Below the pieces are notes generated by a model. It saw only the letters and a program-made list of their open reading frames with translations, was not told the origin of the DNA and did no database searches. A stretch of DNA of 42,107 nucleotides, from NCBI GenBank assembly GCA_029210695.1, contig JARGFH010000033.1:1-42107 (forward strand), read 5' to 3'. Shown in pieces: positions 15,301 through 32,901 of this stretch (position 1 is the first letter of the stretch; each line of letters begins with the position of its first letter). The translations under genes were made by a program, and so were the position numbers. This DNA is from Acidimicrobiia bacterium. Lineage in GTDB: Bacteria; Actinomycetota; Acidimicrobiia; Spongiisociales; JAHEDJ01.

Positions 15301-18300
15301 CGTGATCGGATCTACCGCGACGGTCCCGTTGGTTGGTGGGCCGTCGATGGCGACCGTGGTCGGGTCGACCGTCCCGTCGATGTCGGTGTCGTTAGCGACC
15401 ACGTCGACCGTCACCGGCGCATCTTCCGGGGTCGTGGCGCTGTCGTCGACGGCGGTCGGCGGGATGTCGGGCACGATGGTGATCGTCACCATGGCAGTGT
15501 CACACTCAACCGGCGTGCCGTTGTCGCACACCTCGTACTCGTAGACATCGATCCCGGTGAAGCCGGCATTCGGGTTGTAGGTGACCGTTCCGTCGAGATT
15601 GACGGTCACCCAACCGTTGAGAGGTTCGAGAAGGCCGTTGACGCCGTTGCCGACCGTCACCGTGGTCGGATCGATCAGCCCGTCGAGGTCGGTGTCGTTT
15701 CCGAGTACACCGGTCGAGACGGCCACGTCCTGGCCGGTGATGTCGAAATCGTCGGCGGCGATCGGCGCATCGTTGACCGGGTCCACCGTGATCGTCACCG
15801 TGGCGGTAGCAGTGCCGCCGTTGCCGTCGGAAATCGTGTAGTCGAAGGAATCCGTCCCGTTGAAATCGGCGTCCGGGGCGTAGGTGATCGTCCCGTCCGC
15901 GTTGATCGTCACCGACCCGTTCGCCGGGGTCGTCGCCGACACCACGGCGAGCGGGTCGCCGTCGACATCGGAATCATTGCCCAGGACGGCGATGACGACG
16001 TCCAGATCCTCATCGGTGGTCACCGAGTCGTCGACTGCGGTCGGGTCGTCGTTGACCGGGGTGATCGTGATGAGAACGGTCGCCACGTTCGAGATCAGGC
16101 CGTCGGAATCGGTCACGGTATAGGTGAACGAATCGGTGGTGGTCTCCGAACCGTTGTGAACATAGGAGAACGTGCCATCCGGGTTCAGGGTGAGCACACC
16201 GTTGGCCGGTCCGGTCACCAGCGCCACCGACCCGGCCGGCACGCCGTCCTCGACATCGGTGTCGTTGGCCTGCACCGTGGTCGCCGCGCTGTCGAGCACC
16301 ACCACCGTGCCCCCCTCCGCCACCGTGACCGTATCGTCGACAGCCACCGGCGCGTCGTTGACCGCGCCCACCGTGATCGTCACCGTCGCAGTGTCGCAGG
16401 CGCCGTTGATATCGCAGGCCTCGTAGGTGAACGAGTCGCTCCCGTTGGAGTTGGCGTCGGGTGTGTAGGTGAATGATCCGTCGCTGTTGAGGGCCAGGGT
16501 CCCGTCGGCGGGTGATGTGGTGACGGTGAGCGTGTCGAGTCCGTCACCGAGGTCGTCGTTGGCCAGGACGCCGGGGCCGGGAATCACCAGGGCGGTGTCC
16601 TCGTCGGTCGAGTAGGTGTCGTCAACCAGGTCGGGGGTAGGCACCACCGTGATCGTGACGGTTGCCTGGTCACAGGCACCGATCGTGTCGCAGATCTCGT
16701 AGGTGAAGGCGTCGATTCCGTTGAAGTCCGGGTCCGGGGTGTAGGTGAACGTTCCGTCGCCGTTGTTCTGGAGGGCCCCGTTGGCGGGGCCGGACAACAC
16801 CGCGGCCGTGGTCGGGTCGAGGTTGCCATCGACGTCGGTGTCGTTGGCTGCAGCATCGATCGTGACCGGCGTGTCCTCCGGAGTGGTCGCCGGATCGTCG
16901 CCGGCTACCGGTGGGTCGTTGGCTTCGACCACGGTGACCGTGACGGTGGCCGTGGCGGTCCCGCCGTTGCCGTCTGAGACGGTGTAGGTGAAGGTGTCAT
17001 CGCCGTTGAAATCGGCGGCGGGTGTGTAGGTCAGAGATCCATCGGCATTCACCGTCACGATTCCGTTGGCCGGTTGCGTGTATGAGTCGACGACCAGCGT
17101 GTCGCCGTCGATGTCGGAGTCGTTGCCGAGGACGCCGTCGGCAGGCACGCTGAGGGGTGTGTCTTCGGTCGTCGAGTATGCGTCGTCGACCGCCGCCGGG
17201 GTGTCGTTCACGCCATCGATGTTGACGGTCACGGTGGCCGTCGACGTGTCTCCGTCGGCATCGGTGATCGTGTACGTGAAGGTATCGGTCACCGTCTCTC
17301 CGACTGCCAGTCTCTCAAACCGGCCGTCCGGGTCGTAGGACACGGTGCCGTCCGCCGCCACCGACACCACACCGAGGGTACCGGTGGTGTCGAAGGCGGT
17401 GACGGTGGCGGGGGCGTCGCCCTGATCGTCGTTCGTCAGCACCGACACGGCAAAGGTGGCCGGCGTGTCCTCGTCGGTCGTGTAAGTGTCATCGACCGCG
17501 TCGGGACCGGCGTCGACCGTGATCGTAACCTGCGCCGCATCGAAGCCAAGGTTGCCGTCGCTGAGGGTGTACCAGAAGGTGTCGGTGCCGGAGAAGTCCG
17601 AGTTCGGGGTGTAGTCGAACGTCCCGTTTGTATTGAGTGTGAGTGTGCCGTTCGACACGTCGGAGAGGAGCGCAACCGAGAGAGGATCACCATCAACATC
17701 GAAGTCAACTCCGGCGCCGGTGTCGTCGGTGAGGATGTTCCCCGCCACGGGGGTGTCCTCTTCAGTGAGGTAGACGCCATCTGTGGCGACCGGTGCGTCG
17801 TTGACGGGATCGACGGCAATGGTGACCGTCGCAGTTGCGGTGCCGCCGTTGCCGTCTGAAATCGTGTAGTCGAAGGTGTCCGTCCCGTTGAAATCGGCGT
17901 CGGGGGTGTACGTCAGAGATCCATCCGCGCTCACCGAAACCGACCCATTGGGGGGTTGGGTGTATGAGTCAACCAGCAGAGGATCCCCGTCGACGTCTGA
18001 GTCGTTTCCGAGAACTCCCGGCACCGGCAGGGTAAGCGCCGTGTCTTCGTTGGTCGAATACGAGTCATCGACTGCCACCGGGTCGTCGTTGACCGGGTCG
18101 ACGGTGATCGTGACCGTGGCCGTATCGGCACCGCCGTTGCCATCAGCGATGTCGTAGGTGAACGTATCGACGCCGTTGAAGTTGGCGGCCGGTGTGTAGC
18201 CGAATGATCCGTCGGCGTTCCAGGTGACGGTACCGGTGGTGCCCGTCACATCGATCCCGGTCACAGTGAGCGGGTCGCTCTCGCCGTCGGTGTCGTTGTC

Positions 18301-21252
18301 GAGCAAGCCGGGCGCGGCGATGGCGAGCGGCGTGTCCTCGTCCGTCGTGTACGCATCGTCTACTGCCGCCGGGTCGTCGTTGACCGGGGTGATCGTGATG
18401 AGAACGGTCGCCACGTTCGAGATCAGGCCGTCGGAATCGGTCACGGTATAGGTGAACGAATCGGTGGTGGTCTCCGAACCGTTGTGAACATAGGAGAACG
18501 TGCCATCCGGGTTCAGGGTGAGCACACCGTTGGCCGGTCCGGTCACCAGCGCCACCGACCCGGCCGGCACGCCGTCCTCGACATCGGTGTCGTTGGCCTG
18601 CACCGTGGTCGCCGCGCTGTCGAGCACCACCACCGTGCCCCCCTCCGCCACCGTGACCGTATCGTCGACAGCCACCGGCGCGTCGTTGACCGCGCCCACC
18701 GTGATCGTGACCATCGCCGGAGCGCAGGCGCCGCTCGGGTCGCACGCCTCGTAGGTGAACGAGTCGCTGCCGTTGAAGTCGGCATCCGGCAGATACGTGA
18801 ACGAGCCGTCGGCGTTCTGCGTCAGCGTTCCATCGGAAGGACCCGTCAAGGGATTGACCGTCAGGGTGTCGCCTTCGACGTCGGAGTCATTGGCGAGGAT
18901 GCCGGCGGCCGGCACCGTCAGCAGCGTGTCTTCGTCGGTTGAGTAGGAATCGTCGACTGCCACCGGAGCGTCGTTGACTGCGCCAACCGTGATCGTCACC
19001 GTCGCCTGGTCGCACAATCCACCTGCGTCACAGGATTCGTATGTGTACGAGTCGACACCGTTGAAATCGGGATCCGGTGTGTAGACGAAACCGCCGGTGG
19101 AGTTCTGAGCCAGGGTGCCGTCCGAGGGACCGGTCAGGAGAGTGACGGTCAGCGTATCGCCGTCGATATCGGTGTCGTTCCCGAGCAGCCCCGGCGCCGG
19201 CACCGTGATGGCCGTGTCCTCGTCGGTCGTGTACGAGTCGTCGACAGCCACCGGCGCGTCGTTGCGCGGATCCACCGCGATCGTCACCGTGGCCGTGGCG
19301 CACTCACCGTCCGTGTCGCAGATTCCATAGGTGAACGAGTCGCTCCCATTGAAGTCCGGGGCCGGGGTGTAGGTGAACGTTCCGTCGCCGTTGTTCTGGA
19401 GGGTCCCGTTGGCGGGGCCGGACGACAGCGCGGTCGTGGTCGGATCCAGGTTCCCATCCACGTCCGCATCGTTGGCGGCGGCATCGATCGTGACCGGCGT
19501 GTCCTCCGGGGTAGTCGCCGCATCAGCGTTCGCCACCGGCGGGGTATTGACCGTGATCGAAACGGCTGCCGTGTTGTTGGCCGGGGTCCCGTCGCCCGGA
19601 GACGACGCCGACACGGAGGCGGTGTTGGTGATCGTCGCGCCGGCGGTTCCCGACGCGACGGTGGCCGTTATGGAGAGAGTTCTGGAGCCACCCGCAGCCA
19701 GGGCCCCGATCGTCCAGAGGCCGGAGGCAACGCTGTACGAGCCTGAACCGTTGTCCGAGACATAGGTCACACCGGCCGGCAGCAAATCGGCCACTCTGAC
19801 TCCGCTGGCTGCATCGGGACCGTTGTTGGTAACGGTGATCCCGTACGTGATCGTCGCTCCCACCCGGGGCGTGGAGTCGCTGACGGTCTTGATCGCGGAC
19901 AGGTCCGCATTGGCGACCGTCGTCGTAGCGGTGGCCGTGTTATTGGCCGGGGTCGGGTCGGTGGTGGTCGATGCCACGGTGGCGGTATTGGTGAGGGTGC
20001 CGGCAGTGCCACTCGCCACTGTGCCGTTGATCGTGATCGTGGCGGTCTGGCCCTTTGCCATCGTTCCGAGATTGCAGGTGACCGTCGGAGCGGTGAACGT
20101 GCACGATCCAAGAGAGGTCGACGCCGAGGTGTAGGTCACACCCGCCGGAAGCGGATCTGAGACGGTAACGCCGTTGGCGGACGACGCGCCGTTGTTGGTC
20201 ACGTTCAACGAGTAGGCGATCGCCTCGCCCACCCCGGCGGTCGCAGTTGCGGACTTGGTGATGGCGAGGTCGGCACGAGTGACGGCCGTATAGGCAAGAA
20301 AGAGGGTGGACCAATTGTCGTTGTAACGGAAGCTGGATCCTGAGAAGTCGTAGATGAGGGGCCGCAGTGTCCCGGATCCGGCGCCGACCACGTTGACGGT
20401 GAAGGTGACTGCGATGTCTCCGCCCGCCTTGCCCCCCCACAGGAGCGGGCCGATGCAGGATCGGTAGGTGGCACTGGTCGGGACGGCGTCCCAACCGCAG
20501 GCGTCCGCGTGCATCTTGTCGTTCGTCGCTCCGGATGGGGCGGTATAGGCCGCGGCCACGGAGACGATTTGGAAGATAGCCGGGTCGAACGGGACGAGGT
20601 TGACGAGTTGCTCATAGCCGTTCGTGGCGGTGGTCCCGGTGAGCACGAAGGTCGCCTGGGTGCCGACCACGAGATCGCCGGCAGAGGTCTTGGTGAGCGA
20701 GACGGCCTTGTTGTGGAACTGCGAGATGAGCTTCTCAACGTAGAGCTGTCGTGGCCGGGGAGTGGAAGCGGTAGCTGCGTTGCTCGACGTGACTTCGATG
20801 TAGTAACGGCCGGTGGTGTCGAACGCCGCGGCAACCTTGCTGACCGTCACCTTGAAGTAAACCCGGCGACAGGCGCCCGGGGCGAGGTTGCCGATCGTCT
20901 GCGACGCCGGACTTGCCAAGGTGATGTAGGTGGGACTCGTACCATCCCAGCGGAAGGTGGCAACGGCATTCGCAGTGGCCTCTGACCCAGCGTTGCACAC
21001 CCTGGCACCGACGAGGTACTCCGAAGGTCCGGTGGCCGGGCTGTTCGAATCGAGACCGATCATGTCCCAGGTGATTGGCGTGACGGTCAGCGTGGTGGCC
21101 GCCGCCGCAGCGGCGAGAAACGGAGCGGCGAACTGCGACACTACGACGAGGAACGCGATCAATGCCGTCAGCGTCGAACGTCCGCTGATGCGCGTGAAAG
21201 CCGACTGCCTTCCGGCGCCCGCCTTCCGGGAACTGAGATCGGCGATGTTCAC
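9394..21252 (-). CDS. Giant sortase-anchored surface protein / putative adhesin: head domain, 2 DUF11-like domains, ~32 cadherin-like/Ig (Big_9-type) repeats, SdrD-B-like domain, LARTG anchor
   Basis: GTG start with GGAG RBS and signal peptide. ADLAITKS/ADLSAIKT domains, ~95-aa NDAPVAxDD...YTPxxDFxGxDxFTY repeats, ISGVVWMDVDGDG. LARTG (9577-9591) followed by TM helix and RAGRRQER. Contains NNNN gap at 11753-11756. Confidence 0.9.
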   Translation of the reverse strand: MNIADLSSRKAGAGRQSAFTRISGRSTLTALIAFLVVVSQFAAPFLAAAAAATTLTVTPITWDMIGLDSNSPATGPSEYLVGARVCNAGSEATANAVATFRWDGTSPTYITLASPASQTIGNLAPGACRRVYFKVTVSKVAAAFDTTGRYYIEVTSSNAATASTPRPRQLYVEKLISQFHNKAVSLTKTSAGDLVVGTQATFVLTGTTATNGYEQLVNLVPFDPAIFQIVSVAAAYTAPSGATNDKMHADACGWDAVPTSATYRSCIGPLLWGGKAGGDIAVTFTVNVVGAGSGTLRPLIYDFSGSSFRYNDNWSTLFLAYTAVTRADLAITKSATATAGVGEAIAYSLNVTNNGASSANGVTVSDPLPAGVTYTSASTSLGSCTFTAPTVTCNLGTMAKGQTATITINGTVASGTAGTLTNTATVASTTTDPTPANNTATATTTVANADLSAIKTVSDSTPRVGATITYGITVTNNGPDAASGVRVADLLPAGVTYVSDNGSGSYSVASGLWTIGALAAGGSRTLSITATVASGTAGATITNTASVSASSPGDGTPANNTAAVSITVNTPPVANADAATTPEDTPVTIDAAANDADVDGNLDPTTTALSSGPANGTLQNNGDGTFTYTPAPDFNGSDSFTYGICDTDGECATATVTIAVDPRNDAPVAVDDSYTTDEDTAITVPAPGLLGNDTDIDGDTLTVTLLTGPSDGTLAQNSTGGFVYTPDPDFNGVDSYTYESCDAGGLCDQATVTITVGAVNDAPVAVDDSYSTDEDTLLTVPAAGILANDSDVEGDTLTVNPLTGPSDGTLTQNADGSFTYLPDADFNGSDSFTYEACDPSGACAPAMVTITVGAVNDAPVAVDDTVTVAEGGTVVVLDSAATTVQANDTDVEDGVPAGSVALVTGPANGVLTLNPDGTFSYVHNGSETTTDSFTYTVTDSDGLISNVATVLITITPVNDDPAAVDDAYTTDEDTPLAIAAPGLLDNDTDGESDPLTVTGIDVTGTTGTVTWNADGSFGYTPAANFNGVDTFTYDIADGNGGADTATVTITVDPVNDDPVAVDDSYSTNEDTALTLPVPGVLGNDSDVDGDPLLVDSYTQPPNGSVSVSADGSLTYTPDADFNGTDTFDYTISDGNGGTATATVTIAVDPVNDAPVATDGVYLTEEDTPVAGNILTDDTGAGVDFDVDGDPLSVALLSDVSNGTLTLNTNGTFDYTPNSDFSGTDTFWYTLSDGNLGFDAAQVTITVDAGPDAVDDTYTTDEDTPATFAVSVLTNDDQGDAPATVTAFDTTGTLGVVSVAADGTVSYDPDGRFERLAVGETVTDTFTYTITDADGDTSTATVTVNIDGVNDTPAAVDDAYSTTEDTPLSVPADGVLGNDSDIDGDTLVVDSYTQPANGIVTVNADGSLTYTPAADFNGDDTFTYTVSDGNGGTATATVTVTVVEANDPPVAGDDPATTPEDTPVTIDAAANDTDVDGNLDPTTAAVLSGPANGALQNNGDGTFTYTPDPDFNGIDAFTYEICDTIGACDQATVTITVVPTPDLVDDTYSTDEDTALVIPGPGVLANDDLGDGLDTLTVTTSPADGTLALNSDGSFTYTPDANSNGSDSFTYEACDINGACDTATVTITVGAVNDAPVAVDDTVTVAEGGTVVVLDSAATTVQANDTDVEDGVPAGSVALVTGPANGVLTLNPDGTFSYVHNGSETTTDSFTYTVTDSDGLISNVATVLITITPVNDDPTAVDDSVTTDEDLDVVIAVLGNDSDVDGDPLAVVSATTPANGSVTINADGTITYAPDADFNGTDSFDYTISDGNGGTATATVTITVDPVNDAPIAADDFDITGQDVAVSTGVLGNDTDLDGLIDPTTVTVGNGVNGLLEPLNGWVTVNLDGTVTYNPNAGFTGIDVYEYEVCDNGTPVECDTAMVTITIVPDIPPTAVDDSATTPEDAPVTVDVVANDTDIDGTVDPTTVAIDGPPTNGTVAVDPITGEITYTPDPDFFGTDTFTYTVADDDRVVSAPATVTITVTPVDDLPLAVDDTNSVPEDGGPVSGNVLGNDTGLGDGGITVTLIADVAGGTLALSSDGTYDYTPDPDFAGTDTFIYEVCDVDGDCAQATVTITVVGSNDAPVAVDDPATTDEDVPVTITVLANDSDVDGDGLVVASVSDPATGSAVVNADGTVTYTPDADFSGVDTFIYEISDGNGGTATATVTVTVDPINDAPDAVGDAYSTNADTVLNVAAPGVLANDADIDGDLPTVATIDTTGTAGTVTVNSNGSFDYDPAGAYAALPPGVPADDTFTYEISDGRGGVDTATVTITVIGTGDAPQATDDSTTTFEDTPVMIEVVSNDFDIDGDLDPTAVTVDSPPASGIATVNADGTITYAPNGDFFGTDTFTYEICDNTGLCDTATVTVTVSAVEDAPVARDDAGTTDEDVAVTVPVLANDSDAEGNLDPSTLALLTDPADGIATVNADGTITYAPNGDFFGTDTFTYEICDNTGLCDTATVTVIVNSINDAPDAIDDTETTDEDTAVVISVQGNDDDPDGDALTTAAVGTPTNGGAAINPDGTITYTPDADFWGADSFTYTVCDPLGLCDTATVTVTVNDVNDPPVANDDATTTDEDVPVAVDLDVNDADLDGAVDPASVVVVDVPANGTITAINSDGSVEYTPNPGFWGTDSFTYTVLDDDGAVSNVAIVTITVNSVNDVPEASDDSATTDEDTPVTIAVQGNDTDPDGDALTTTIVSQPARGSVGVNVDGSVDYTPEADFFGADAFVYEVCDADLACDQATVTVTVNDVNDPPVANDDAASVEEGGTFSITVDVLANDSDVDGTLVEASVTVGDGVNGLFEPANGSLVVNAGGTITYTPVAGFAGTDTFEYEVCDDDGACDTATVTILVTDNTPPVPVDDPATTGEDAPVTIPVLDNDIDPDGDSLTVDSVTQPANGSVAVNPDGTVAYTPNADFFGTDTFTYAACDDGIPAECATATVAVTVTPVNDAPVAGDDLATTDEDVAVVVNLVGNDSDLEDVIVDPATVVVTSGPADGTLVVYADGTVLYMPAAGWWGTDTFTYTVDDFDGLTSNEATVTVTVNSINDAPQATDDPATTGEDTPVTIPVLDNDGDPDGDLLTVDSVTQPANGSVAVNPDGTVAYTPNADFFGTDTFTYTVCDPDGLCDXXVAYTPNADFFGTDTFTYTVCDPDGLCDTGLVTIDVTPVNDPPVAINETPVTDEDTPISFNVLANDTDPEGDTLTVDSWTNPINGTITLDPVTGAVTYTPDPGFFGNDSFIYTVCDAGTPQLCAAATVEIDVLPVNDPPVVAPDSAATDEGTPVTITVLGNDSDPDGDSLAVNIVTPPANGAVTVNGDGTVTYAPEANFSGTDTFDYEACDPSGACATTTAVVTVAPVNDAPVVVNDLVTTDEDTPVTIILLGNDSDPEGDTLTVTSVTAPANGTIGINADGTITYTPAPDFNGTDAFTYTVCDPSDACATATVSVIITPANDGPVAVDDTIATEGPVTIPVLANDSDIDGDTLSVTSATSPADGVITINADGTITYTPDPAFEGVDTFTYTVCDTSDSCDTAGVTVAVAQLGRISGVVWMDVDGDGLFDSGEFDLSNIAIEFTCAGADGIVGTTDDIELPSAFTGSPYLATDVPPGFCRVSVDTSTLPAGLVPTFDIDGGSDAAALMLVGPGSTVGGIDFGFTDVNDPPVAVDDEAETAEDTAVTIPVVSNDSDPEGEPLTITSLSQPANGSVAINADGTVTYTPKAGFSGIDLINYTVCDAVGQCATAAVTITVSAVNDAPVVTTTDIRVTVGDSLPALGSFDSEGNSYRLVILSGALPAGITMNPDGTFAGRTSVTALLTLTIEACDDLGACAIYTVFIDVLPPALASLDNGDTVPATLARTGMDSDALVLFAGILLALGLAIVMRAGRRQERSAILPQVAGCGKATRPSHQTPKPNMWWGSE
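16042..16380. repeat. 339-bp direct repeat, copy 1 (copy 2 at 18370-18708)
   Basis: Sequences appear identical by eye at offset 2328; one whole Ig repeat. Confidence 0.9.
18370..18708. repeat. 339-bp direct repeat, copy 2
   Basis: Matches 16042-16380. Confidence 0.9.
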
Positions 21253-21498: not shown

Positions 21499-22284
21499 AT
21501 GCGATCGATCTGGAAGGGGGCCATCAGCTTCGGCCTAGTCACCATTCCGGTTGGCCTCTACTCGGCCACCGAAAATCGGACACCGAAGTTCAAGATGCTC
21601 CGGCAAACCGACGGCAGTCCGATCAAGTACAAACGCGTCGCCGAAGCGGACGGCCAGGAGGTGGTCTGGGACGACATCGTGCGTGGCTTTGAGATCGAAA
21701 AAGGTCGCTACGTTGTGTTCACCGACGAAGAGCTCCAGTCGGCTACGGCCAAAGGGGCCGCCAAGGCGGTCGACGTCGTGCAATTCGTGGACCAGTCGGA
21801 GATCGACCCGATGTATTACAAGTCCTCGTACTACCTCGCTCCGGAACAAACAGGCGTCAAGGCCTATCACATCCTCCTGGAGGCACTGGCCGCTTCGGGG
21901 AAGATCGGTCTCGCCAGAGTGGCACTGCGCGACAAACAGTACATGGCCACGGTCCGCCCCAACAACGGTGTGCTGGTTCTCGAGACGATGTATTGGCCGG
22001 ACGAGATCAGGGAGGCCCGGTTCGAGGAACTCGACACCGCGGTGGAGGTCAGGGAAGAAGAGGCCAAGATGGCCAACATGATCATCGAGAACCTCTCCCG
22101 GGATTTCGACCCCGCCGAGTGGACCGACCACACCCGTGAATCCATCGAGGAACTCGCCCAGAAGAAGATCGAAGGCGAAGAGATAATCGCACCGGAGTCG
22201 CCGGAGCCGACCAAGGTGATCGATCTCCTCGAAGCCCTCAAGGCAAGCGTCGAGGCCACCAAAGCCAAACGAGCAGCCAGCTAG
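21499..22284 (+). CDS. ku: Non-homologous end joining protein Ku
   Basis: MRSIWKGAISFGLVTIPV, IDPMYYKSSYYLAP, LETMYWPDEIR, VIDLLEALKASV. TAGAAT 7 nt before the ATG suggests a leaderless transcript. Confidence 0.96.
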   Translation: MRSIWKGAISFGLVTIPVGLYSATENRTPKFKMLRQTDGSPIKYKRVAEADGQEVVWDDIVRGFEIEKGRYVVFTDEELQSATAKGAAKAVDVVQFVDQSEIDPMYYKSSYYLAPEQTGVKAYHILLEALAASGKIGLARVALRDKQYMATVRPNNGVLVLETMYWPDEIREARFEELDTAVEVREEEAKMANMIIENLSRDFDPAEWTDHTRESIEELAQKKIEGEEIIAPESPEPTKVIDLLEALKASVEATKAKRAAS

Positions 22285-22326
22285 AAGGGCAATAGGCGAA
22301 TAGGCCATACGCATGGCCGAGAACGG

Positions 22327-22371
22327 TGTATCTGTGATGTATATGTAATGTATACGTATTGGTGCTACACT
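22327..22371 (+). promoter_or_regulatory. Three 11-bp direct repeats plus -10 box upstream of parA (putative operator/centromere)
   Basis: TGTATCTGTGA TGTATATGTAA TGTATACGTAT (22327-22359), AT-rich in a GC-rich genome. TGc-TACACT at 22363-22371, 6 nt before the ATG. Confidence 0.65.
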
Positions 22372-22377
22372 GCCCTG

Positions 22378-23310
22378 ATGCTTTCGAACGGGCTGGTGGT
22401 CGCCAATGGCAAGGGCGGCGTCGGCAAGACCACCATCGTCGCCAATGTCGCCGGGATGGCCTCCGCCGCCGGGTGGCGGGTCCTGGCAGTCGATCTCGAT
22501 CCCCAGGGCAACCTTGGATCCGACCTCGGGTTCAAGCAGCGCGGCCTCGACGATGGGGGTGCCGGCCTGCGCGATGCCGTTGCCTTCGGTGCACCTCTGA
22601 CTCCTCTTCGTGACGTTCGACCTGGTCTCGATGCCATCCCGGCCGGCCCGGCGACGCCGGAGCTCATCACCGCTCTCTCCCTCGATCCTTCCGGCGGGCG
22701 CCACGCGCTGCGCTACGCACTCGAACCGCTCGCCGGGAACTACGACCTGATCGTGATGGACTGCCCTCCGGCCGGCGGAATCATGGTTGACGCCGCGCTC
22801 ACCGCCGGGCACTGGTTGGTCATTCCCGTCAAATACGACGACGGGTCACTCGACGGTCTCGAACTCATGGCCCGGCAGTTCGGCGGAGTCCGAACGGTCG
22901 ACAACCCCGGCCTCGAATTGCTCGGTGTCGCCCTCTTCGATTTCAGCCTGGCCGGCAAGCTCATCCGGCGAGAGGTCCGCAAGTCCCTCGAGTCCGAACT
23001 CGGAGATCCCCGGCTGATCTTCGAAGCCGTTATTCGTCGATCCGAACGCGGCGCCTTCGATATGAGACGGCGCGGGATCCTTAGCCACGAGTACCAGAAG
23101 CAGGCCGATCACCAGCAACGGACCGTGACCGTGGGTGAGCGCATCAAAGCGGCGCGAGCCGGCCGGCCGGTTGAACAGTTCTCGTCTGCGGCGGATGGTC
23201 TGGCAGAGGATTACGAAAACCTGACTCGTGAGATCCTGACCCGGATCGGATTGAAGGAACCGCCCCGGCCATTTGCGGTGGTCGACGGCGACCCATGGGC
23301 CGGGTCATGA
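22378..23310 (+). CDS. ParA/Soj-family ATPase (plasmid type Ib-like)
   Basis: Deviant Walker A NGKGGVGKTT, VDLDPQGN, Walker B YDLIVMDCPP; no N-terminal HTH. Confidence 0.92.
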   Translation: MLSNGLVVANGKGGVGKTTIVANVAGMASAAGWRVLAVDLDPQGNLGSDLGFKQRGLDDGGAGLRDAVAFGAPLTPLRDVRPGLDAIPAGPATPELITALSLDPSGGRHALRYALEPLAGNYDLIVMDCPPAGGIMVDAALTAGHWLVIPVKYDDGSLDGLELMARQFGGVRTVDNPGLELLGVALFDFSLAGKLIRREVRKSLESELGDPRLIFEAVIRRSERGAFDMRRRGILSHEYQKQADHQQRTVTVGERIKAARAGRPVEQFSSAADGLAEDYENLTREILTRIGLKEPPRPFAVVDGDPWAGS

Positions 23311-23801
23311 GCCGCAGACGCGACCTGAGCGGCTTCGGGGCGAAGTCACAGCCAGCACCGCAACCTGCGCAGGCGCCCGAGGCTCATCCCCCGGCCGCCG
23401 GCGAGACGCCCTCCCCCCGGTCGCCCCGCGCTCCGAAGAAGCGAACTCGCCTGCCGGCTCCGTCCACCCGAAAGAGCCAGACCCGTCGTATCACGCTCTC
23501 GCTGCCCACGACGCTGGCGAGCGAGCTCAAGGCGGTGACTCGGCGGGATGCGACCTACTACATCGACATCATCCTCAATGCTCTGGTGGATCACGCCGGG
23601 CCACTTCGAGACCAGCGGACGGCCGCGCGCCGCCTGGGTACGCTGAAGGTTGTCGCTCCACGTCGGCGTCGACCACCGGGCCGAACCCAGGTGCCGCTCA
23701 ACATCGGGGAAGAGGCGCTGGCTCAAATCGACCAAGCCGCCCGGGAACTCGGGATGAACCGGTCGGCGTATGTTGCGGAGTTACTCGAGCGCGCCCTCTG
23801 A
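23307..23801 (+). CDS. Putative ParG-like protein with two ribbon-helix-helix motifs
   Basis: ATGA coupling to parA. Flexible Pro/Arg-rich N-terminus, then RITLSLPTTLASELKAV...IILNAL and TQVPLNIGEEALAQIDQAARELGMNRSAYVAELLERAL. Confidence 0.7.
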   Translation: MSRRRDLSGFGAKSQPAPQPAQAPEAHPPAAGETPSPRSPRAPKKRTRLPAPSTRKSQTRRITLSLPTTLASELKAVTRRDATYYIDIILNALVDHAGPLRDQRTAARRLGTLKVVAPRRRRPPGRTQVPLNIGEEALAQIDQAARELGMNRSAYVAELLERAL

Positions 23802-24740
23802 GGCTGGGCCTTCTGCCAGCCAGGTAACCGCATTCGGATCGACCAGGTCGATCCCTTCGAAGACCGGGGCGCGGAGCCGGCCGGCAACTGTCCAGTTCTT
23901 GAATGTGATACGCGCCACCAATCCCGGATGGACCCACCGCGCCTGGCCCGGGTCGCCTGCCCCGTCGAATGGCGATCGGGTGGCCTGCAGGTCGTCCAGC
24001 GCGCTGCGGATGGCTTCGAGCGCTCGATCATCGAACCCGGTGCCGACCCGACCGATGTAGCGAAGTGCCTCCCCATCGAAGAGCCCGAGCAGCAGGCTCC
24101 CGAAGCTGCTCGCCCGTCCGCCCTCTCCCGGCACGAAGCCGCCGACGACGGCCCGGAGGCGATTGATCACGGCGACCTTCCGCCAGTCGGGCGACCGGAC
24201 CCCCGGTCGATAGCGGGAACCCAGCCGTTTGGCGACGATGCCTTCCATCGCCGAGGCCCGGACGGCTTCGAACAACTCGACGCCGTCGCCGGCGGTCTGG
24301 GCGGAGACAACCACCAGACCCGGTTCGATCTGCGACAGCCGTCCGGTCCGATCCTCGAGCGGGTGCGTCAACAAGGGTTCGCCGTCGTAGAGCACGTCGA
24401 AAGCCAGCACGGAGATCGGGACCGATCGAGCCATAGCGCCCGCCTGCCGGCCCGTCGCTCCAATGCGCGATTGGAGCAGTTCGAACGACGGCACCCCGGT
24501 CGAGTCGAAGGCGACGATCTCGCCGTCGATCAGTCCGGGACGCGGCCACCGGAAGGCAGACAGTTCCGGGAAGGCCGGCAGCAGGTCGTTGCCGGTACGG
24601 CTCCCCGCCCGGACCGCCGTTCCGTCCCAACCCAGCACCGTCCGTACACCATCCCATTTGGCCTCAAACACCCACCCGGGGTCGGAAAACGGTTCCCGCC
24701 ACGGCATGGCCAGCATGGGAGAGTACGTCGGAAGCGTCAC
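23781..24740 (-). CDS. ATP-dependent DNA ligase (stand-alone LigD-type ligase domain)
   Basis: EAKWDGVR adenylation motif, IDGEIV, AFDVL, EGIVAKR, YRPGVRSPDWRK, GSLLLG, GRVGTGF, LRAPVF. Confidence 0.93.
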   Translation of the reverse strand: MTLPTYSPMLAMPWREPFSDPGWVFEAKWDGVRTVLGWDGTAVRAGSRTGNDLLPAFPELSAFRWPRPGLIDGEIVAFDSTGVPSFELLQSRIGATGRQAGAMARSVPISVLAFDVLYDGEPLLTHPLEDRTGRLSQIEPGLVVVSAQTAGDGVELFEAVRASAMEGIVAKRLGSRYRPGVRSPDWRKVAVINRLRAVVGGFVPGEGGRASSFGSLLLGLFDGEALRYIGRVGTGFDDRALEAIRSALDDLQATRSPFDGAGDPGQARWVHPGLVARITFKNWTVAGRLRAPVFEGIDLVDPNAVTWLAEGPASEGALE

Positions 24741-26664: not shown

Positions 26665-29600
26665 TCAGGAAGTAGCCACCTGCACGACCTCGATATCTCC
26701 CCCCTGCACCAGATAACCGCGCCCCGGGAGGTGGAAAGATGGACCCCGACGTGGGAAACGCGTCTGCCACAACTCTCCGTCCAGATCGGGGTCGGGTCGC
26801 AACGACACCCCCAGCCGGCAGCGGCGGATGTCCCTGGTCCAATGTTGATAGAGGCCCCGTAGCGCGTCTGCTCTTCCGGCCGCGATCACGTAGAACTCGT
26901 CTCGAGGCCGGGTGAGGAGGGCGTTCAGCTCCGGATGCTCGATCCGTTCGGCATCGTCGATGACAACCAGGGTTGGTTCCGACCGGTCGCGCACGGCTTC
27001 CAGGAGCTCATCGACGGACCCGCAGCAGGTTCCGGCCACCTCACAGAGCATCGATCCCGGCCCGGCCAAGGCGACAACCTCCAGGTCGGGATCAGCGGTT
27101 GCCGCCAGACGAGCCATCGAGGCAAGTGCCGTCGTTCTTCCACTTCTGGCCGGACCGGCGACCAGCACGTGATCGCCGGCATGCATTCGAAACCCGATCG
27201 GGGCCAGGTCGCGATCGCCGAGTCCCACCGGCAGGAATCTGCCCTCGCCGGCTGCGCCCGGGTGGTGCGACAGGGCTTCGAGGGGAACCCGGTGGGGCAA
27301 GATACCGATTCGTTCCGGAGGAGTACCGTTCGGCTGCATGTCCAGAAGCCGGCGGGTTTCCGCCGGCGATGGCCGTCCGACCTGGACCATCCGGCCGGCC
27401 GCATCGAAACCGCGCCCTCGCACCAGGTCCGGAACGTCGCGCGGTGTCACACCGGCAGCCGCGTACTCGACTGGATCGGCGAGGCGGAAACACAATCGCG
27501 GCCCGATCGAGGAGGCAACGGCAGACGGAACCGCCCCGGGACGCAACGCCGATACGAAGGGGAAGATCCCGAAGGCGGGGCCCTCCACCATCACTCTGAT
27601 CAAGGCTTCACGTATGTCGAGGTCGCCGGGACCATCGAAGGCGCTCAGCACGATCCCCAGCCGTTCCACAATCACGAGGACCATGCTTTGGCGCGCCCCT
27701 CCCCGACGTCGATCCTCGAGCAGGCTATCCAGTCGCCTGACAACCCGGACCACCCGCTCGCGATCGGCAATGCGGGCGATCCCCCCAACGTGAGGCCATT
27801 CCTCGAGGTCGGCGAGCGACCCTCCCCCACCATCCAGGCCGTAGATGTGCAGCCCGCCCGGGTCGGTGGCGAGCGCGAGCGCGAAGGCGCAGGACACGAT
27901 GGCATCCGACGCACCCGAGCCCTCGACTCCAAAGGAGAGCAAACCACCGTCGCCGGGGTTCCAGACGAGGTCACCGACTCGTTGCCGATCGGGTTCATCG
28001 ACCAGGCCGAACACTCCGGTGCCCCGATCCGACCCTCCCAGCTCGAGCGCGTCGGGGAGCGGCGGAGCCCACGGTGCTCGTGGCGGTTGCCATCCAAGCA
28101 CGCGGACCGCTGCCGACGCCAACGCCGAAAACCGTTCGAGTTCGCTCGGTGATGAGGCGAGCTCCTGCTCCTGCGCAACCGCCACCGGTTCCCAGCCGAA
28201 CCGGACCGGAACGGCGATGGGAAGATCGCCGGCGCCCGGACGATCACCTCCGCTGATCCTGGCCGTCTGGAAGGGCACCAACTCGCCCGGGCCGAGACGC
28301 AGCACTCCGCGACCAGGGAACCGGCGGGGAAGTCGGGCAGCCACCGGATCGTCGATCACGTCACGCGAGTCTGCGACCGTCTGCACCCGCAGCGCCACGC
28401 GCAGGTTGGTGTTGGCGCGGATTGCATCACCAACGACGCCGGCGGGACGCTGCGTCGCCAGGATCAGATGCACACCGAGCGAGCGTCCTCGACGGGCGAT
28501 GTCGACGAGCGATGGAACGAACTCCGGGATGTCCCCGGCCAGGGCGGCGAACTCATCGACGATGACGACGAGACGCGGCAAAGGCGCGGCTTCGCCCAGG
28601 CGATGATACGAATCGACGTCCTCTGCCCCGGCAGCGCGCAGGACTTCCTCGCGATGTCGCAGTTCGGCCTCGAGACTCTGGAGGGCCCGTTTCCCGAGCC
28701 GGCGGTCGAGATCGGTAACCAGTCCGAGGACGTGCGGGAGGGCCGCGCAGGCGTCGAAGGCGCTGCCGCCCTTGTAATCGATGAGGGCGAAGGTCACGCG
28801 ATCAGGTCCGTAGTTCATGGCCAGCGATGTGATCAGAGAACGGAGCAACTCGCTCTTCCCGGAACCCGTTGTCCCGGCGATCAGCCCGTGCGGCCCGTCC
28901 GCAACGAGGTCGAGAGCCATCAGGCCGTTCTCGGTCAGACCAAGAGCGGCAAGAAGGCCTTCCGGCGGATCGGTCCACCGGGCGATCACTTCCGGAGTGT
29001 CCACCGGAAGACCGACGAGTGCTTGCATCGTGACCCCGGCCGGGAGGCGTCCACCCTCGGATGCTTCTTCCGGGTCGTCCAGCGCGTACAGTTGTCGGGC
29101 GACCAGTCCGGCCACGTCCGGCTGCACGCCGTCGATAGCAAACTCGACCTTCGTTCCGCCGCCGGCAGGATGTGTGAGCACGCCGAAGGCTCCGGAGATC
29201 GTCACCACTGTTTCGCACGACCCGGGAAGCTCCACCGGCGCAGCCTCAACTACCACTGCCGAGACCGTCCCATCATCAACGAGCGCCGCCAGCCGGGCGC
29301 GGAGCTGTGGATCCATTCCTCCGCCATCGAACACCACAACCAGGTCAGCCTCGCTTGCCTGGGTGAGGCTTGCCATGACTGATTCGATGTCGTCCGGGTC
29401 CGCACCGAGGCGGTAGCGCCCCGAGGAGCCATCCAGCCTGGTGTGCGGTAGCCACGAGCACCATTCCCAATCGGTCGTGGTGCCCGTGATGATCGCCAGG
29501 CGAACGTCGGCCGGACCGTGGTGCGTCACCAGTCGCAGAAGAAGAGCCCGCACCATCGCCAGGGCTCCCGGTCGGTCGCCGGCGACTCCAATCATGGTCC

Positions 29601-30642
29601 CGGCCTCCAGTCCGACCTCCACCGGTCCGTTCGGGAGTAGCGATCGCCGTTCGATCACTGCTTCCACCGTCGGGTCGCCGCCGGATGGAGACCGAACGGG
29701 GGGCTCCCACCAGGTCCGTCCCATGCCGATCGACAGCCGCAAATAGTCGGGATGGTGGCGGCGGCGTTCCCAGAGAACAGGTTCCATTTCTATCGCGCCT
29801 CGCACAAGGTCGGGGACGCACGGATGGCGGTCAAACCGCCGCTCGATCTCGTTTCGGGCGGCCCGTTCGAGCGCATCATCGAATACGGCGAGATCGGCGG
29901 CCCATGCCGCCGCGTTCCGGCGGCGGCCCTTTCGGAGGCGCAGGCGGTCCTCAACCAGCGCAATCGTCATCATCAACGGACCAACCAGCGCAATCACCGC
30001 CATGATCGGCCGGAAGACCAACGCCATGATCGCTCCCATCAGGGCCGGGCCGGCCAGCATGGCCCATCCCATTCGAGCCCGGGCGGCCGGTTCTGCAGGG
30101 GCAGCCGGGACATCGATAGCTTGCTCCGGCGACTTGGCGAGTTGCCGAGGTGGGCGGTTGAAGGAGCGGCGTCCGCGTACAGGCTCAACCCGTCGCTCTA
30201 TTGACCCCGGCGCCTTGATCAGCCACCTCGTCCCGCCGGCGCGGAACGTCTGCCCCACTCCAACCTGGTACACATCATCTGACCCATCCACACGGTGAAC
30301 GGTGACCATGCCCCGGTCATCTACGAACACCTGCGGCCCGCCTCGTCGGGTGAGGTCGTATCCACCAGGGGCGAGACGCCAGCGGCCCCCGGCATCGATT
30401 CCCGATTGCCCGACGAGTTCGACCACGCCGGTCTTCCCGATCACTGCCTCTTGCCCATCGGCCTCCCCGCCACGATCCAGCCGGGACCCGTCCCACATCG
30501 CGCCGATCGCAAGCGCCGGATCGATGCGCAAACCCTCGACGAGGAGGTCACCCTCTCCGTTCACCAGGGCGGCGACCGTCCCTAGTGGAGCATCCGGTGC
30601 AACGTCGACGTCGAAAGCACGTCCATCGACCTCAAAGCGCAC
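26665..30642 (-). CDS. FtsK/SpoIIIE multi-ATPase, EccC/EssC-like type VII secretion coupling protein
   Basis: FNRPPR, two TM helices, LWERR, DGPHGLIAGTTGSGKSELL, IDYKGG, VIVDEFA, GRSLGVHLILATQRP. Two further degenerate ATPase domains (GVEGSGAS, GPARSGRT). Directly downstream of two WXG100 genes. Confidence 0.88.
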   Translation of the reverse strand: MRFEVDGRAFDVDVAPDAPLGTVAALVNGEGDLLVEGLRIDPALAIGAMWDGSRLDRGGEADGQEAVIGKTGVVELVGQSGIDAGGRWRLAPGGYDLTRRGGPQVFVDDRGMVTVHRVDGSDDVYQVGVGQTFRAGGTRWLIKAPGSIERRVEPVRGRRSFNRPPRQLAKSPEQAIDVPAAPAEPAARARMGWAMLAGPALMGAIMALVFRPIMAVIALVGPLMMTIALVEDRLRLRKGRRRNAAAWAADLAVFDDALERAARNEIERRFDRHPCVPDLVRGAIEMEPVLWERRRHHPDYLRLSIGMGRTWWEPPVRSPSGGDPTVEAVIERRSLLPNGPVEVGLEAGTMIGVAGDRPGALAMVRALLLRLVTHHGPADVRLAIITGTTTDWEWCSWLPHTRLDGSSGRYRLGADPDDIESVMASLTQASEADLVVVFDGGGMDPQLRARLAALVDDGTVSAVVVEAAPVELPGSCETVVTISGAFGVLTHPAGGGTKVEFAIDGVQPDVAGLVARQLYALDDPEEASEGGRLPAGVTMQALVGLPVDTPEVIARWTDPPEGLLAALGLTENGLMALDLVADGPHGLIAGTTGSGKSELLRSLITSLAMNYGPDRVTFALIDYKGGSAFDACAALPHVLGLVTDLDRRLGKRALQSLEAELRHREEVLRAAGAEDVDSYHRLGEAAPLPRLVVIVDEFAALAGDIPEFVPSLVDIARRGRSLGVHLILATQRPAGVVGDAIRANTNLRVALRVQTVADSRDVIDDPVAARLPRRFPGRGVLRLGPGELVPFQTARISGGDRPGAGDLPIAVPVRFGWEPVAVAQEQELASSPSELERFSALASAAVRVLGWQPPRAPWAPPLPDALELGGSDRGTGVFGLVDEPDRQRVGDLVWNPGDGGLLSFGVEGSGASDAIVSCAFALALATDPGGLHIYGLDGGGGSLADLEEWPHVGGIARIADRERVVRVVRRLDSLLEDRRRGGARQSMVLVIVERLGIVLSAFDGPGDLDIREALIRVMVEGPAFGIFPFVSALRPGAVPSAVASSIGPRLCFRLADPVEYAAAGVTPRDVPDLVRGRGFDAAGRMVQVGRPSPAETRRLLDMQPNGTPPERIGILPHRVPLEALSHHPGAAGEGRFLPVGLGDRDLAPIGFRMHAGDHVLVAGPARSGRTTALASMARLAATADPDLEVVALAGPGSMLCEVAGTCCGSVDELLEAVRDRSEPTLVVIDDAERIEHPELNALLTRPRDEFYVIAAGRADALRGLYQHWTRDIRRCRLGVSLRPDPDLDGELWQTRFPRRGPSFHLPGRGYLVQGGDIEVVQVATS

Positions 30643-30925
30643 CGGCTACTCCTTCAAGGCCGGCGCCTGCGGCCGCCGCGGCCCGGATCCCGGCAGCCTC
30701 CCATTCGAGCCGGCTCGCCCCGGCGCGCAACCCCCGGGCGACACCGCGCAGGACCAACCGGTGGCTCAGCAGGTCCCTCTCCAGCTGATCTGCGGCCGGC
30801 CCGATCCACACCTCGGGCAGCTGCAACAGGGACGGTTCCAGATACGAAGCGATCGCGTCTTCGAGACGATTCGACTCCACCCGCAAGCGTGCGGCGGCCA
30901 ACTCGAGCGAGTCCGCCCCGGCCAT
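30632..30925 (-). CDS. WXG100-like protein 2
   Basis: 97 aa, helix-WIG-helix (EVWIGPAADQL). TGATG coupling to the upstream WXG100 gene; overlaps the ATPase start. Confidence 0.75.
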   Translation of the reverse strand: MAGADSLELAAARLRVESNRLEDAIASYLEPSLLQLPEVWIGPAADQLERDLLSHRLVLRGVARGLRAGASRLEWEAAGIRAAAAAGAGLEGVAGAL

Positions 30926-31203
30926 CAGGCCCCGTAGAGGTTGGTTGCCTGATCGATGGCGTCCCGCCGGGCGGCGACGACATGCGACGCTTCGAGCAGT
31001 GCCTCCTGGAGGTTGACCAGCATCGGCTGGAACTCCTCGTGCCATCGCCGCCGGAACTCGTCGGCGACGAGACCCGTCCACTGCGTCTGCGCCAGATTTG
31101 CGTCGATCGATCGGTTCAGCCGCTCGACCTGGTCGGCCTCTCTGGAAAAGGTGGTGGTGAGTGTCACCAACTGCTCGAGGTTGCCCCCAACAAACGTTGC
31201 CAT
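30925..31203 (-). CDS. WXG100 (ESAT-6/EsxA-like) type VII secretion substrate
   Basis: 92 aa, central QWTGLVADEFRRRW, amphipathic helices, GAAAGGG RBS. Confidence 0.9.
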   Translation of the reverse strand: MATFVGGNLEQLVTLTTTFSREADQVERLNRSIDANLAQTQWTGLVADEFRRRWHEEFQPMLVNLQEALLEASHVVAARRDAIDQATNLYGA

Positions 31204-31247
31204 ATCGCATCCCTTTCTCGATCAGCACCTTGGTGGCGCTTCTCGTC

Positions 31248-31309
31248 ACCGTATAGTGATAGATAAGATATGTCAAGAGTTGACGAGCGGCTTTAGGTAG
31301 AGATATCAT
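31248..31309. promoter_or_regulatory. Back-to-back divergent promoters for the WXG100 operon and the LysM-TcpC operon
   Basis: Minus strand: TTGACA (31271-31276)-17-TACGGT (31248-31253). Plus strand: TTGACG (31280-31285)-18-TATCAT (31304-31309), 6 nt before ATG 31316. Confidence 0.75.
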
Positions 31310-31315
31310 CATCTC

Positions 31316-32077
31316 ATGATGCATAGAAAACTCGCGGCGCTCCTGGCCTTCGAAGGGTTCGCAATCAGCGCACTCCACAGACTCGGTTCCAGGCCGGGAT
31401 TCGGTATCCGGTGGACGGACCTGCCGGCCCCGACCACCCGCCTCGACGACGCCGTCGCCTCAGGCCTTCGCTACCTCACCCTGACGCTGGCGTACTGGCT
31501 GCTCGCGTCGACGGTGCTGTATGTATGTGCACGTCTGGTGGACCTTCAGGCCGCCCTTCGGGCGGTGCAGTGGGCAACGCTCCCGGTTGTTCGCCGTCTC
31601 GTCGACCGGACCCTGGCGGTCGGCCTGACCGTCGGCACGCTCGTCACTCCGGCCCAGGCGATGGTCCAGACCGTTCCGCCGCCCGTCGAACAGATTTACA
31701 TTCCGACCCCGGCCGGCGTGCCGGAGGAACCGGTCGTCGATGCACAGACAGTGGTCCCGCCGTGGGCCTCCCTCCCGGCAGCGCCACCGCCGGCCGGGAA
31801 TCCATCCACTGATCTCCTCGACCATGAACCGGTTGACTCCCTCCCCGCCAACCTGTTGTTCGACGGATCCGAAACCCACGCGGTGGAGGTCGGGGAGAGC
31901 CTGTGGTCCATCGCCGAACATCGACTGCGCCTCACCACCGGTACCCCGCCCTCGGATGCCGCCACTGCGACGTACTGGGTCGAGCTGATTGCTGCCAACC
32001 GTGACAGGCTCATCTCAGGCGACCCGGACCTCATCTACCCCGGAGAGGTGCTGGTGATTCCCCCGGTGGCGCCGTGA
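31316..32077 (+). CDS. Membrane protein with C-terminal LysM peptidoglycan-binding domain
   Basis: N-terminal hydrophobic segments, Pro-rich linker, HAVEVGESLWSIA...YWVELIAANR...DPDLIYPGEVLVIP. Confidence 0.9.
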   Translation: MMHRKLAALLAFEGFAISALHRLGSRPGFGIRWTDLPAPTTRLDDAVASGLRYLTLTLAYWLLASTVLYVCARLVDLQAALRAVQWATLPVVRRLVDRTLAVGLTVGTLVTPAQAMVQTVPPPVEQIYIPTPAGVPEEPVVDAQTVVPPWASLPAAPPPAGNPSTDLLDHEPVDSLPANLLFDGSETHAVEVGESLWSIAEHRLRLTTGTPPSDAATATYWVELIAANRDRLISGDPDLIYPGEVLVIPPVAP

Positions 32078-32901
32078 TCGGCGTACGGTCTCCTGAACCG
32101 GAATACCGGCAACCTCCACCTGCACCACCGCCTGCTGCCCCTGTGCCTGCTGCGCGCTCGCGCCCGGAGAGCGCCTGGAAGCGGACGGCGGTTGTGTCCG
32201 GTGTTGCGATCACGGCAGGAGTCGTCCTCCTGGTGGCAGTCATCGTCCCGAGGCAGACGAACCCGGCCACACCACCCCTCGTCGTGGCCGGGTTCGCCGA
32301 GGGCTTCGTGCACACCTATCTGTCGGCGGCAGGAGAGGAATCCGAAGAGACGCTCGCCCCCTTCCTCGGCTACTCCCCATCGCTGATCGGCATGCGCCCA
32401 GGAGCCTTCTACGTGACCAATGTGTCCGTCCGGGGATTCTTCCCGCACGAAGAGGGCTGGACCGTCGAAGTCCGGGCAGAGGTCCTCGAGCAAACGGAGC
32501 GCGGATTTGCGCCGTCGCACCCCAGGCACTTCGCGATCCGGGTGATCGACAGGCCCGGAGCCGGATTGCTGGCCGACGGGCTCCCCGCTCCGATTGCGGC
32601 ACCGACCGTCGCCGCGGTACCGGCGCCCGCGCTGGAGGCGCCCCCGTCGGACGATGGCACGGCGGAGGCTGTGGCCGCTTATCTCGACTGGTATCTGACC
32701 GGATCGGCTCCCATCGGTGGTAGTGCGCCGGCAGGAGGGTTCGCTGGCGTGGAACTCCTCACCCTCCATCTGGAAGCGGATACCGCCGTGGCAGGCGTTG
32801 CGGTGACCACCGGCGGCGGGCACACGCTCCGGGTAGAGGTACCGCTGGCGAGAGTCGCCGGTGTGTGGCAGGTGGTCGACCTCAGCCGGGAATCCAGCTG
32901 A
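32074..32901 (+). CDS. Putative TcpC/VirB8-like conjugal-transfer family membrane protein
   Basis: GTGA coupling to the LysM gene. One TM helix, then two similar segments (AGFAEGFVHTYL...; AVAAYLDWYL...LARVAGVWQV) joined by a LPAPIAAP linker, as in TcpC double NTF2-like proteins. Confidence 0.65.
   Translation: MIGVRSPEPEYRQPPPAPPPAAPVPAARSRPESAWKRTAVVSGVAITAGVVLLVAVIVPRQTNPATPPLVVAGFAEGFVHTYLSAAGEESEETLAPFLGYSPSLIGMRPGAFYVTNVSVRGFFPHEEGWTVEVRAEVLEQTERGFAPSHPRHFAIRVIDRPGAGLLADGLPAPIAAPTVAAVPAPALEAPPSDDGTAEAVAAYLDWYLTGSAPIGGSAPAGGFAGVELLTLHLEADTAVAGVAVTTGGGHTLRVEVPLARVAGVWQVVDLSRESS

Follow-up and report, generated by a model that had tools for sequence, protein, structure and literature searches.

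The 42,107-nt contig JARGFH010000033.1 of an Acidimicrobiia bacterium in the order Spongiisociales (assembly GCA_029210695.1), referred to in its full length as the window, is contig C108 of a 3.9-Mb genome (G000) that is 97.85% complete. At positions 26665–32901 it carries a compact gene module that is a real, undescribed type VII secretion system (T7SS) variant: an EccC/EssC-like ATPase and two WXG100-like proteins on the minus strand, with genes for a LysM protein and a TcpC/VirB8-like protein diverging from them on the plus strand. The reading favored here, at a probability of roughly 55%, is that the ATPase and WXG100 pair form a minimal T7SS, while the LysM and TcpC-like proteins are likely co-regulated accessory parts of the envelope, likely derived from an integrative and conjugative element (ICE), with a putative partnership between TcpC and the ATPase. 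TcpC and LysM are better seen as accessory because both have been lost in some lineages.

The layout in the initial annotation (five genes, coupled on each strand, and a 112-bp divergent gap) was borne out by the sequence and translations. WXG1 (30925–31203, minus strand) and WXG2 (30632–30925, minus strand) share a TGATG overlap. The WXG2 stop codon falls 11 nt inside the ATPase open reading frame (ORF; 26665–30642, minus strand), which has a GTG start with an AAGGAG ribosome binding site 6 nt upstream. The LysM (31316–32077, plus strand) and TcpC-like (32074–32901, plus strand) ORFs overlap at GTGA, and the gap between the two operons spans 31204–31315. The flanks are indeed housekeeping genes, with whiB, DUF3107, GDPD, yqeY, and ligD on one side and yjbQ, prs, glmU, ispE, and ksgA on the other. 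The GC content of the locus (0.64–0.68) is that of the window, and a recent horizontal island was rejected as an explanation, the locus matching its host in this respect. Among the 31 window proteins scanned there were no Ecc or Ess partners, VirB4, VirD4, relaxase, or integrase, a statement that applies to the window only; EccE was likewise absent from these 31, and no genome-wide search was made for it.

The link between TcpC and the secretion genes is best seen in relatives. Profiles for TcpC, WXG1, and the ATPase, each run against 301 genomes of the order, gave 50, 50, and 71 matches, respectively, from which five TcpC genomes were excluded as ICE-type (four by neighborhood, G120 from its second match) and six ATPase genomes as other types (G009 and G030 on inspection, four by score). 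The ATPase was found in 43 of the 45 genomes with a non-ICE TcpC-like gene, and one of the remaining two keeps an N-terminal ATPase fragment. Going the other way, TcpC was found in 43 of 65 ATPase genomes, or 44 if one found by hand (G226) is counted. Of the 34 genomes where both TcpC and WXG1 matched, 31 have the two genes diverging less than 2 kb from each other, and in the other three they are split over contig ends. This arrangement occurs in four families (f1, f2, f6, f11) and in at least five flank groups among 33 loci. VirB4 was found in just one of the 43 module genomes, compared to four of five ICE controls, and EccB in none of the 43.

Gene order varies considerably. TcpC adjoins the ATPase in three variant arrangements (L025, L044, L097), the order being TcpC-cargo-LysM in L025; in L044 TcpC is downstream of an ATPase copy that has a frameshift and the same orientation. 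LysM is missing from five f2 genera that do have TcpC, and where LysM has been lost TcpC takes the place next to the divergent promoter. An EspG-family gene is found directly after TcpC, or one gene later, in 17 f2 loci; in several loci TcpC is directly followed by a gene for a 374–770-aa protein whose N-terminus looks helical and WXG-like by eye; and 7 of 13 genes scanned downstream of the ATPase encode an Abhydrolase_8 protein with a helical N-terminus. These EspG and hydrolase neighbors link TcpC to secretion. The five-gene layout expected in relatives was thus found only in part: TcpC, with or without LysM, is linked to WXG100-WXG100-ATPase in four families, but not as a fixed five-gene set, as LysM is missing in the five f2 genera and extra genes (EspG, cargo) are often present. 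Nor did the idea hold up that TcpC and LysM stand in, as a fixed module, for the usual membrane parts, the core being found without TcpC in families f7 and f10, three f6 genera, and 79 distant loci. In the genomes searched outside the order no link between TcpC and a T7SS was found. A class-wide search gave TcpC matches in 33 of 401 genomes, and the three matches among the 262 genomes from outside the order were all in ICE operons.

Two further types of locus in the same order were noted. L039 (G009:C32) has ATPase, WXG100 pair, kinase, vWA, and PP2C genes and resembles a T7SSc set, and L043 (G030:C1) has a canonical-looking EccC, a WXG100 gene, and a gene for a YukD-domain membrane protein; EccB was not found in G030.

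The ATPase (1325 aa) was identified by family matches and models. It matches FtsK (PF01580) at E = 1e-48 and the EssC, EccCa, and EccCb models at E values from 1e-126 to 5e-78, yet under the cut-offs of those models. From the N-terminus, it has predicted ubiquitin-like (residues ~1–57) and FHA-like (~74–143) domains, both overlooked in the initial annotation, then a membrane hairpin (~193–230) and a linker/DUF region. Of its NTPase domains, D1 has an intact Walker A motif (GTTGSGKS, at 590), and D2 (905) and D3 (GPARSGRT, 1163) are degenerate; in aligned homologs the D1 motif is intact in 12 of 12 and D2 is degenerate. Two features expected of a T7SS are present at the locus, namely WXG100 genes and a membrane-bound FtsK-type ATPase with an N-terminal membrane hairpin and several NTPase domains. 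A structural model of residues 1–250, built with 34 homologs (predicted local distance difference test score, pLDDT, 82), has a beta-grasp-like domain, an all-beta domain, and a helical hairpin. Foldseek matched this N-terminus to FHA domains and to ubiquitin, SUMO, and NEDD8 with probabilities of 0.95–1.0, but at E > 0.001; for residues 1–57, which have the beta-grasp order of elements, the ubiquitin/SUMO/NEDD8 matches had probabilities of 0.95–0.99 and E values of ~0.06–0.12. Pfam scans of the 34 homologs identified YscD in ten, FHA in three, and YukD in none. Judging from the model, the ubiquitin-like part of the T7SS is likely fused to the ATPase here.

WXG1 (92 aa, W-T-G at 42–44) matches TIGR03930 at E = 5e-6, under the cut-off, and its counterparts in relatives match PF06013. 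WXG2 (97 aa, W-I-G at 40–42) had no match in the family-model scans, and its position between WXG1 and the ATPase is kept in relatives; it is likely the heterodimer partner of WXG1.

In a FastTree reconstruction from 126 ATPase segments (10 near-duplicate loci excluded), a quick tree whose deep branches are unsure, the module ATPases of the order form one clade (support 98) that includes two outsiders. A named Acidimicrobiia ATPase falls inside the clade of the window ATPase, and Acidimicrobiales ATPases branch beside it; this makes class Acidimicrobiia likely, and whiB marks the organism as an actinobacterium. The clade is nested in a wide group of actinobacterial sequences (from Streptomyces, Microbacterium, Frankia, and others) and lies away from the single canonical EccC and the Bacillota and Coriobacteriia sequences. 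Members of the related ATPase family represented by L105–L148 occur widely, in Streptomyces, Microbacterium, Frankia, Geodermatophilus, Nonomuraea, and other taxa; they are often next to WXG100 genes, and the family apparently lies outside the published subtypes a–j. Some ATPase copies in the order (L040, L044, and L076) are broken by a stop or frameshift; L044 is in G023, L076 is in G218, and two of the loci are in one genome.

The TcpC-like protein (275 aa) was identified from its fold, its placement in the Atlas, and its identity to an ICE TcpC. It is predicted to have a short cytoplasmic tail, a membrane helix (residues 40–58), and two NTF2-like domains. The ORF alone has no Pfam match at E ≤ 0.01, and three of ten chromosomal TcpC homologs scanned pass the PF12642 cut-off. 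An AlphaFold model (13 sequences, mean pLDDT 68.5) has the membrane helix and two helix-plus-sheet domains, and the top eight Foldseek matches to it are TcpC of pCW3 (3ub1, E = 2.6e-9) and OrfG of ICESt3. The whole-chain template modeling (TM) score is only ~0.33, probably because the two NTF2-like domains are placed differently in the model, and the match to the single-domain TraM has a TM score of 0.74 by target. The Atlas places the protein among PF12642 clusters, and an ICE TcpC of G000 shares 30% identity with it over 216 aa. The TcpC/VirB8 identity proposed earlier was upheld by the Foldseek comparison, including the NTF2-like fold, and the family assignment of 32074–32901 is secure. The LysM protein (253 aa), identified by its LysM match and by homology to a LysM gene in an ICE operon, has a hydrophobic N-terminal part by which it would be membrane-anchored, a Pro-rich linker, and a C-terminal LysM domain (E = 0.0015, just under the cut-off); it is a predicted peptidoglycan binder. 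Prediction of a complex between ATPase residues 1–250 and the TcpC-like protein gave a score of 0.00 (mark 0.32), which informs neither for nor against contact.

A second, distant family of chromosomal TcpC-like genes (profile E ~1e-10) was found in G191, G203, G016, G225, and G115 (L190–L194). These are beside a small NifU-N-like gene, and one is next to a LysM gene, with no T7SS or ICE gene nearby.

The 112-bp gap contains two predicted promoters, the leftward one TTGACA-N17-TACGGT (31247–31276, minus strand), from a model trained on relatives, and the rightward one TTGACG-N18-TATCAT (31280–31309, plus strand), with its -35 box back to back with that of the other. Most relatives have such back-to-back -35 boxes in the gap (TGTCAA, then TTGACA or TTGACG), and the leftward consensus among them is TTGACA-ATCGTTAAATAACGTTA-TAGGGT, with a spacer formed by the direct repeat ATCGTTA-N3-ATCGTTA that is degenerate in the window. 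In G000 the promoter model scores above 17 bits at a single site, 31276. A separate 18-nt model, limited to the spacer repeat and built from 39 loci, was applied to family f12, where LysM-TcpC is at the DUF3107 site and the WXG-ATPase operon is elsewhere. It reached at least 12 bits upstream of six of six WXG operons and seven of eight separated LysM genes, and in none of 278 control regions (maximum 10.5); scores were also low for the ICE LysM and for G036, which lacks the ATPase. This suggests that co-regulation of the WXG-ATPase and LysM halves outlasts their physical separation.

Within G000, FtsK-family genes are limited to the window ATPase and the true FtsK. As anticipated, there were no genome-wide matches to EccB, EccD, EssB, or EsaA and no mycosin over the cut-off; EssA was not searched for genome-wide. 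The absence of VirB4, VirD4, and relaxase holds for the window and not for the genome, which has five VirB4 matches over the cut-off, at least one VirD4 and TrwC relaxase, and four PF12642 matches over the cut-off, with a fifth TcpC found by profile. Contig C96 has a run of TcpC, small membrane protein, TcpE, VirB4, VirB6, M23, and VirD4 genes with a TrwC relaxase nearby, and G000 holds complete conjugative elements (several ICEs) on contigs other than that of the window. In all, at least five related ICE-type gene runs are found in this one genome (C96, C141, C148, C55, C179, C61), those on C96 and C148 near Tad pilus genes, a TrwC-type relaxase, and a ~1100-aa membrane-LysM-BTAD protein. In two trees, the first without six short rows and the second without these and eight near-duplicate or long-branch rows, the ICE TcpC proteins fall together in one clade (100/100 and 100/99), outside of which is the window protein, which groups with its genus. 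A full ICE elsewhere in the genome, named at the outset as a finding that could overturn the TcpC-T7SS link, is thus present, but it does not undo the link because the ICEs carry their own TcpC of a separate clade. One ORF outside the window, C128:1844–3031 (L199, minus strand), encodes a helical N-terminus followed by Abhydrolase_8 (E = 2e-14), with no secretion gene adjoining. Its C-terminal part is related to the hydrolases at relatives' module loci, it is found in three of six congeners, all module carriers, and it is likely a candidate T7SS cargo in trans.

An ICE origin for the LysM-TcpC pair is suggested by G318, from another order of the class, where a LysM gene precedes TcpC in a TcpC-pilin-TcpE-VirB4-VirB6 ICE operon and its product is 32% identical to the window LysM over the whole length. 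The pair was probably acquired from a conjugative element and has since passed down with the host lineage, and groupings in the TcpC trees follow host genus or family. The ratios of nonsynonymous to synonymous substitution rates (dN/dS) of 0.24–0.50 for TcpC (six pairs) and 0.20–0.52 for LysM (five pairs) indicate purifying selection on both.

Several observations weigh against the favored reading. Relatives are non-independent samples, so the co-occurrence counts make the cases look more independent than they are; a stronger argument than the counts comes from the flanks and gene orders, which change. TcpC had no match in 22 of the 65 ATPase genomes (21 after G226), and searches of up to 8 kb around 79 more distant ATPase loci gave no TcpC match at E < 1e-3. 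In f6 genera g6, g22, and g30 LysM directly adjoins yjbQ, and the loss of TcpC there is real because LysM runs straight to that gene; in families f7 and f10 neither TcpC nor LysM is beside the ATPase. Reduced forms also occur. The f11 TcpC keeps a single NTF2 domain, and two genomes of genus g74 have only a 62-aa stub at the TcpC position (L085:10888–11076, L086:9956–10144), with the PLEL tail motif and membrane helix only; the dN/dS of the stub is 0.28. G036 (89% complete) has TcpC and LysM with no ATPase found, and no EspG over the cut-off was found in G000. The window's own spacer repeat is weak (9.4 bits), it is missing in two of three f10 loci, and the reversed motif in f12 may by now be used by the DUF3107 gene. 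The TcpC trees, whose deep branches are unresolved, do not fix the ICE-to-chromosome direction, for which G318 is one case.

Some of these would also fit a T7SS core working alone, with LysM and TcpC as co-regulated neighbors that make no contact with the secretion machine and do an envelope job of their own (binding the wall, adhesion, sensing contact, or interfering with incoming conjugation). Cores without TcpC (f7, f10, part of f6, the 79 distant loci), the separated halves in f12, the LysM-TcpC pair without an ATPase in G036, and the L190–L194 genes far from any T7SS gene are all as this would predict. Against it are the position of TcpC, wedged between the WXG100 genes and the EspG or helical-N-terminus cargo genes that share its predicted operon, its place beside the ATPase in other gene orders, and the near absence of TcpC without the ATPase (43 of 45); this reading is considered rather unlikely. 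That the core and TcpC together mediate conjugation or chromosomal transfer of DNA, perhaps with ICE VirB4 and VirD4 in trans, is improbable. TcpC is a conjugation protein, ESX-1 and ESX-4 act in mycobacterial distributive conjugal transfer, and G000 does have VirB4, VirD4, and TrwC relaxase genes. According to the available text of PMC5381665 and PMC12857230, mycobacterial ESX plasmids always have virB4 and tcpC, and transfer needs both systems. However, the ICEs have their own TcpC clade, and the neighbors of the module are protein chaperone and hydrolase cargo candidates rather than DNA-processing genes. With VirB4 in one of 43 module-bearing relatives, the module is independent of it there, as the initial annotation implied, and dependence on ICE VirB4 in trans was rejected. 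Least probable is that an ICE once inserted beside T7SS genes and left TcpC and LysM as its decaying remnants. The pair does head a real ICE operon in G318, and truncated TcpC forms do occur in f11 and g74, but selection and conservation largely refute decay: the frames are open in four families, GC is host-like, TcpC groups by host genus or family, no other ICE gene is beside any inspected module locus, and on the dN/dS values a decayed remnant was rejected.

If the favored reading of a minimal T7SS with accessory TcpC and LysM is correct, export of the WXG100 pair and of helical-hairpin cargo would depend on a single ATPase with built-in ubiquitin-like and FHA domains, as predicted from its model. 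By analogy with known T7SSs, the ATPase may form a hexameric pore with D1 as the active motor, the fused ubiquitin-like domain may do the job of EsaB/YukD or of the EccD domain, and WXG1 and WXG2 may be secreted as a heterodimer that escorts helical cargo. EccB and EssB have one helix in the membrane and their bulk outside, a topology that TcpC shares by analogy, not homology. TcpC, with one helix in the membrane and its NTF2 domains outside, could brace the pore or extend it through the wall, and LysM would tie the assembly to peptidoglycan. A more specific proposal, which is tentative, is that of an undescribed T7SS subtype in which a VirB8/TcpC protein from a conjugation machine serves as the outward scaffold of the pore and the LysM protein of the same element as its wall anchor, making a type IV/type VII hybrid for protein export on a ubiquitin-like/FHA ATPase of the wider actinobacterial family (Streptomyces, Microbacterium, Frankia) outside subtypes a–j.

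Farther out in the window are two other sets of genes. A 3952-aa surface adhesin with ~33 Big_9/cadherin-like (tandem-95) repeats, CshA repeats, and DUF11 domains is encoded at 9394–21252 (minus strand), 5 kb away from the T7SS locus, and L024 has a related start at the same site. Adjoining the locus, 21499–24740 contains Ku, a ParA-like gene, a short ORF, and an ATP-dependent ligase, a non-homologous end-joining set also found in several relatives.

Compared with known systems, the module shares an EccC-like ATPase, two non-identical WXG100 genes, and (in relatives) an EspG-family chaperone with T7SSa/ESX-4 of Actinomycetota. It differs in that those have EccB, EccD, and MycP, none of which is found over the cut-off in G000, where TcpC and LysM are present instead, and in that the window ATPase, with predicted FHA-like and ubiquitin-like domains at its N-terminus, branches away from the canonical EccC in the tree. 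EccE is optional in ESX-4. With T7SSb and T7SSc–j, as far as described in the main text of PMC11217815 (Garrett, Higginson, Palmer 2024), it shares an ATPase with an FHA domain (predicted here), a component that is ubiquitin-like by prediction here (and present in nearly all T7SSs), WXG100 proteins, and lipase-like cargo, and T7SSg and T7SSh are similarly small. T7SSb differs in having EssB, EsaA, and a separate ubiquitin-like gene (PMC11217815, same text), whereas the module has neither EssB nor EsaA, one FHA-like domain, and a predicted ubiquitin-like fold on the ATPase itself. No VirB8/TcpC or LysM part is listed in that main text for any of subtypes c–j. The only actinobacterial one of the eight, T7SSd, is described there as having the linked Ser/Thr kinase TsdD, TsdH, the Ig-repeat protein TsdI, and no ubiquitin-like part (PMC11217815); neither the window nor the inspected module loci have T7SSd kinase-, TsdH-, or TsdI-type genes next to the module. 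Mycobacterial ESX conjugative plasmids of the pRAW type also link T7SS genes to tcpC, but, in the portions available of PMC12857230 and PMC5381665, they are plasmid-borne with a full Ecc set and VirB4/VirD4, unlike the module TcpC, which is chromosomal, without VirB4, and among housekeeping genes. The conjugative type IV secretion system (T4SS) or ICE set of VirB4, VirD4, VirB6, and relaxase with TcpC is not found at the window locus. TcpC of pCW3 and OrfG of ICESt3 share one membrane helix and two NTF2-like domains with the modeled protein but belong to conjugation operons, while the module TcpC is outside any such operon and ~30% identical to the G000 ICE TcpC. A literature search, with most subscription journals outside its coverage, found no published description of the module.

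A natural system with one ATPase, two WXG100 proteins, and TcpC and LysM as optional parts is a small test bed for two open questions about T7SSs, namely the route of cargo across the cell wall and the set of membrane parts that is truly required. The available text of PMC12857230 describes as unanswered whether a single hybrid machine is made of the ESX and T4SS parts of mycobacterial conjugative plasmids, and contact between TcpC and the ATPase, if true, would bear on that question. It would also mean that a part of a conjugation machine has been retained by the chromosome for protein export.

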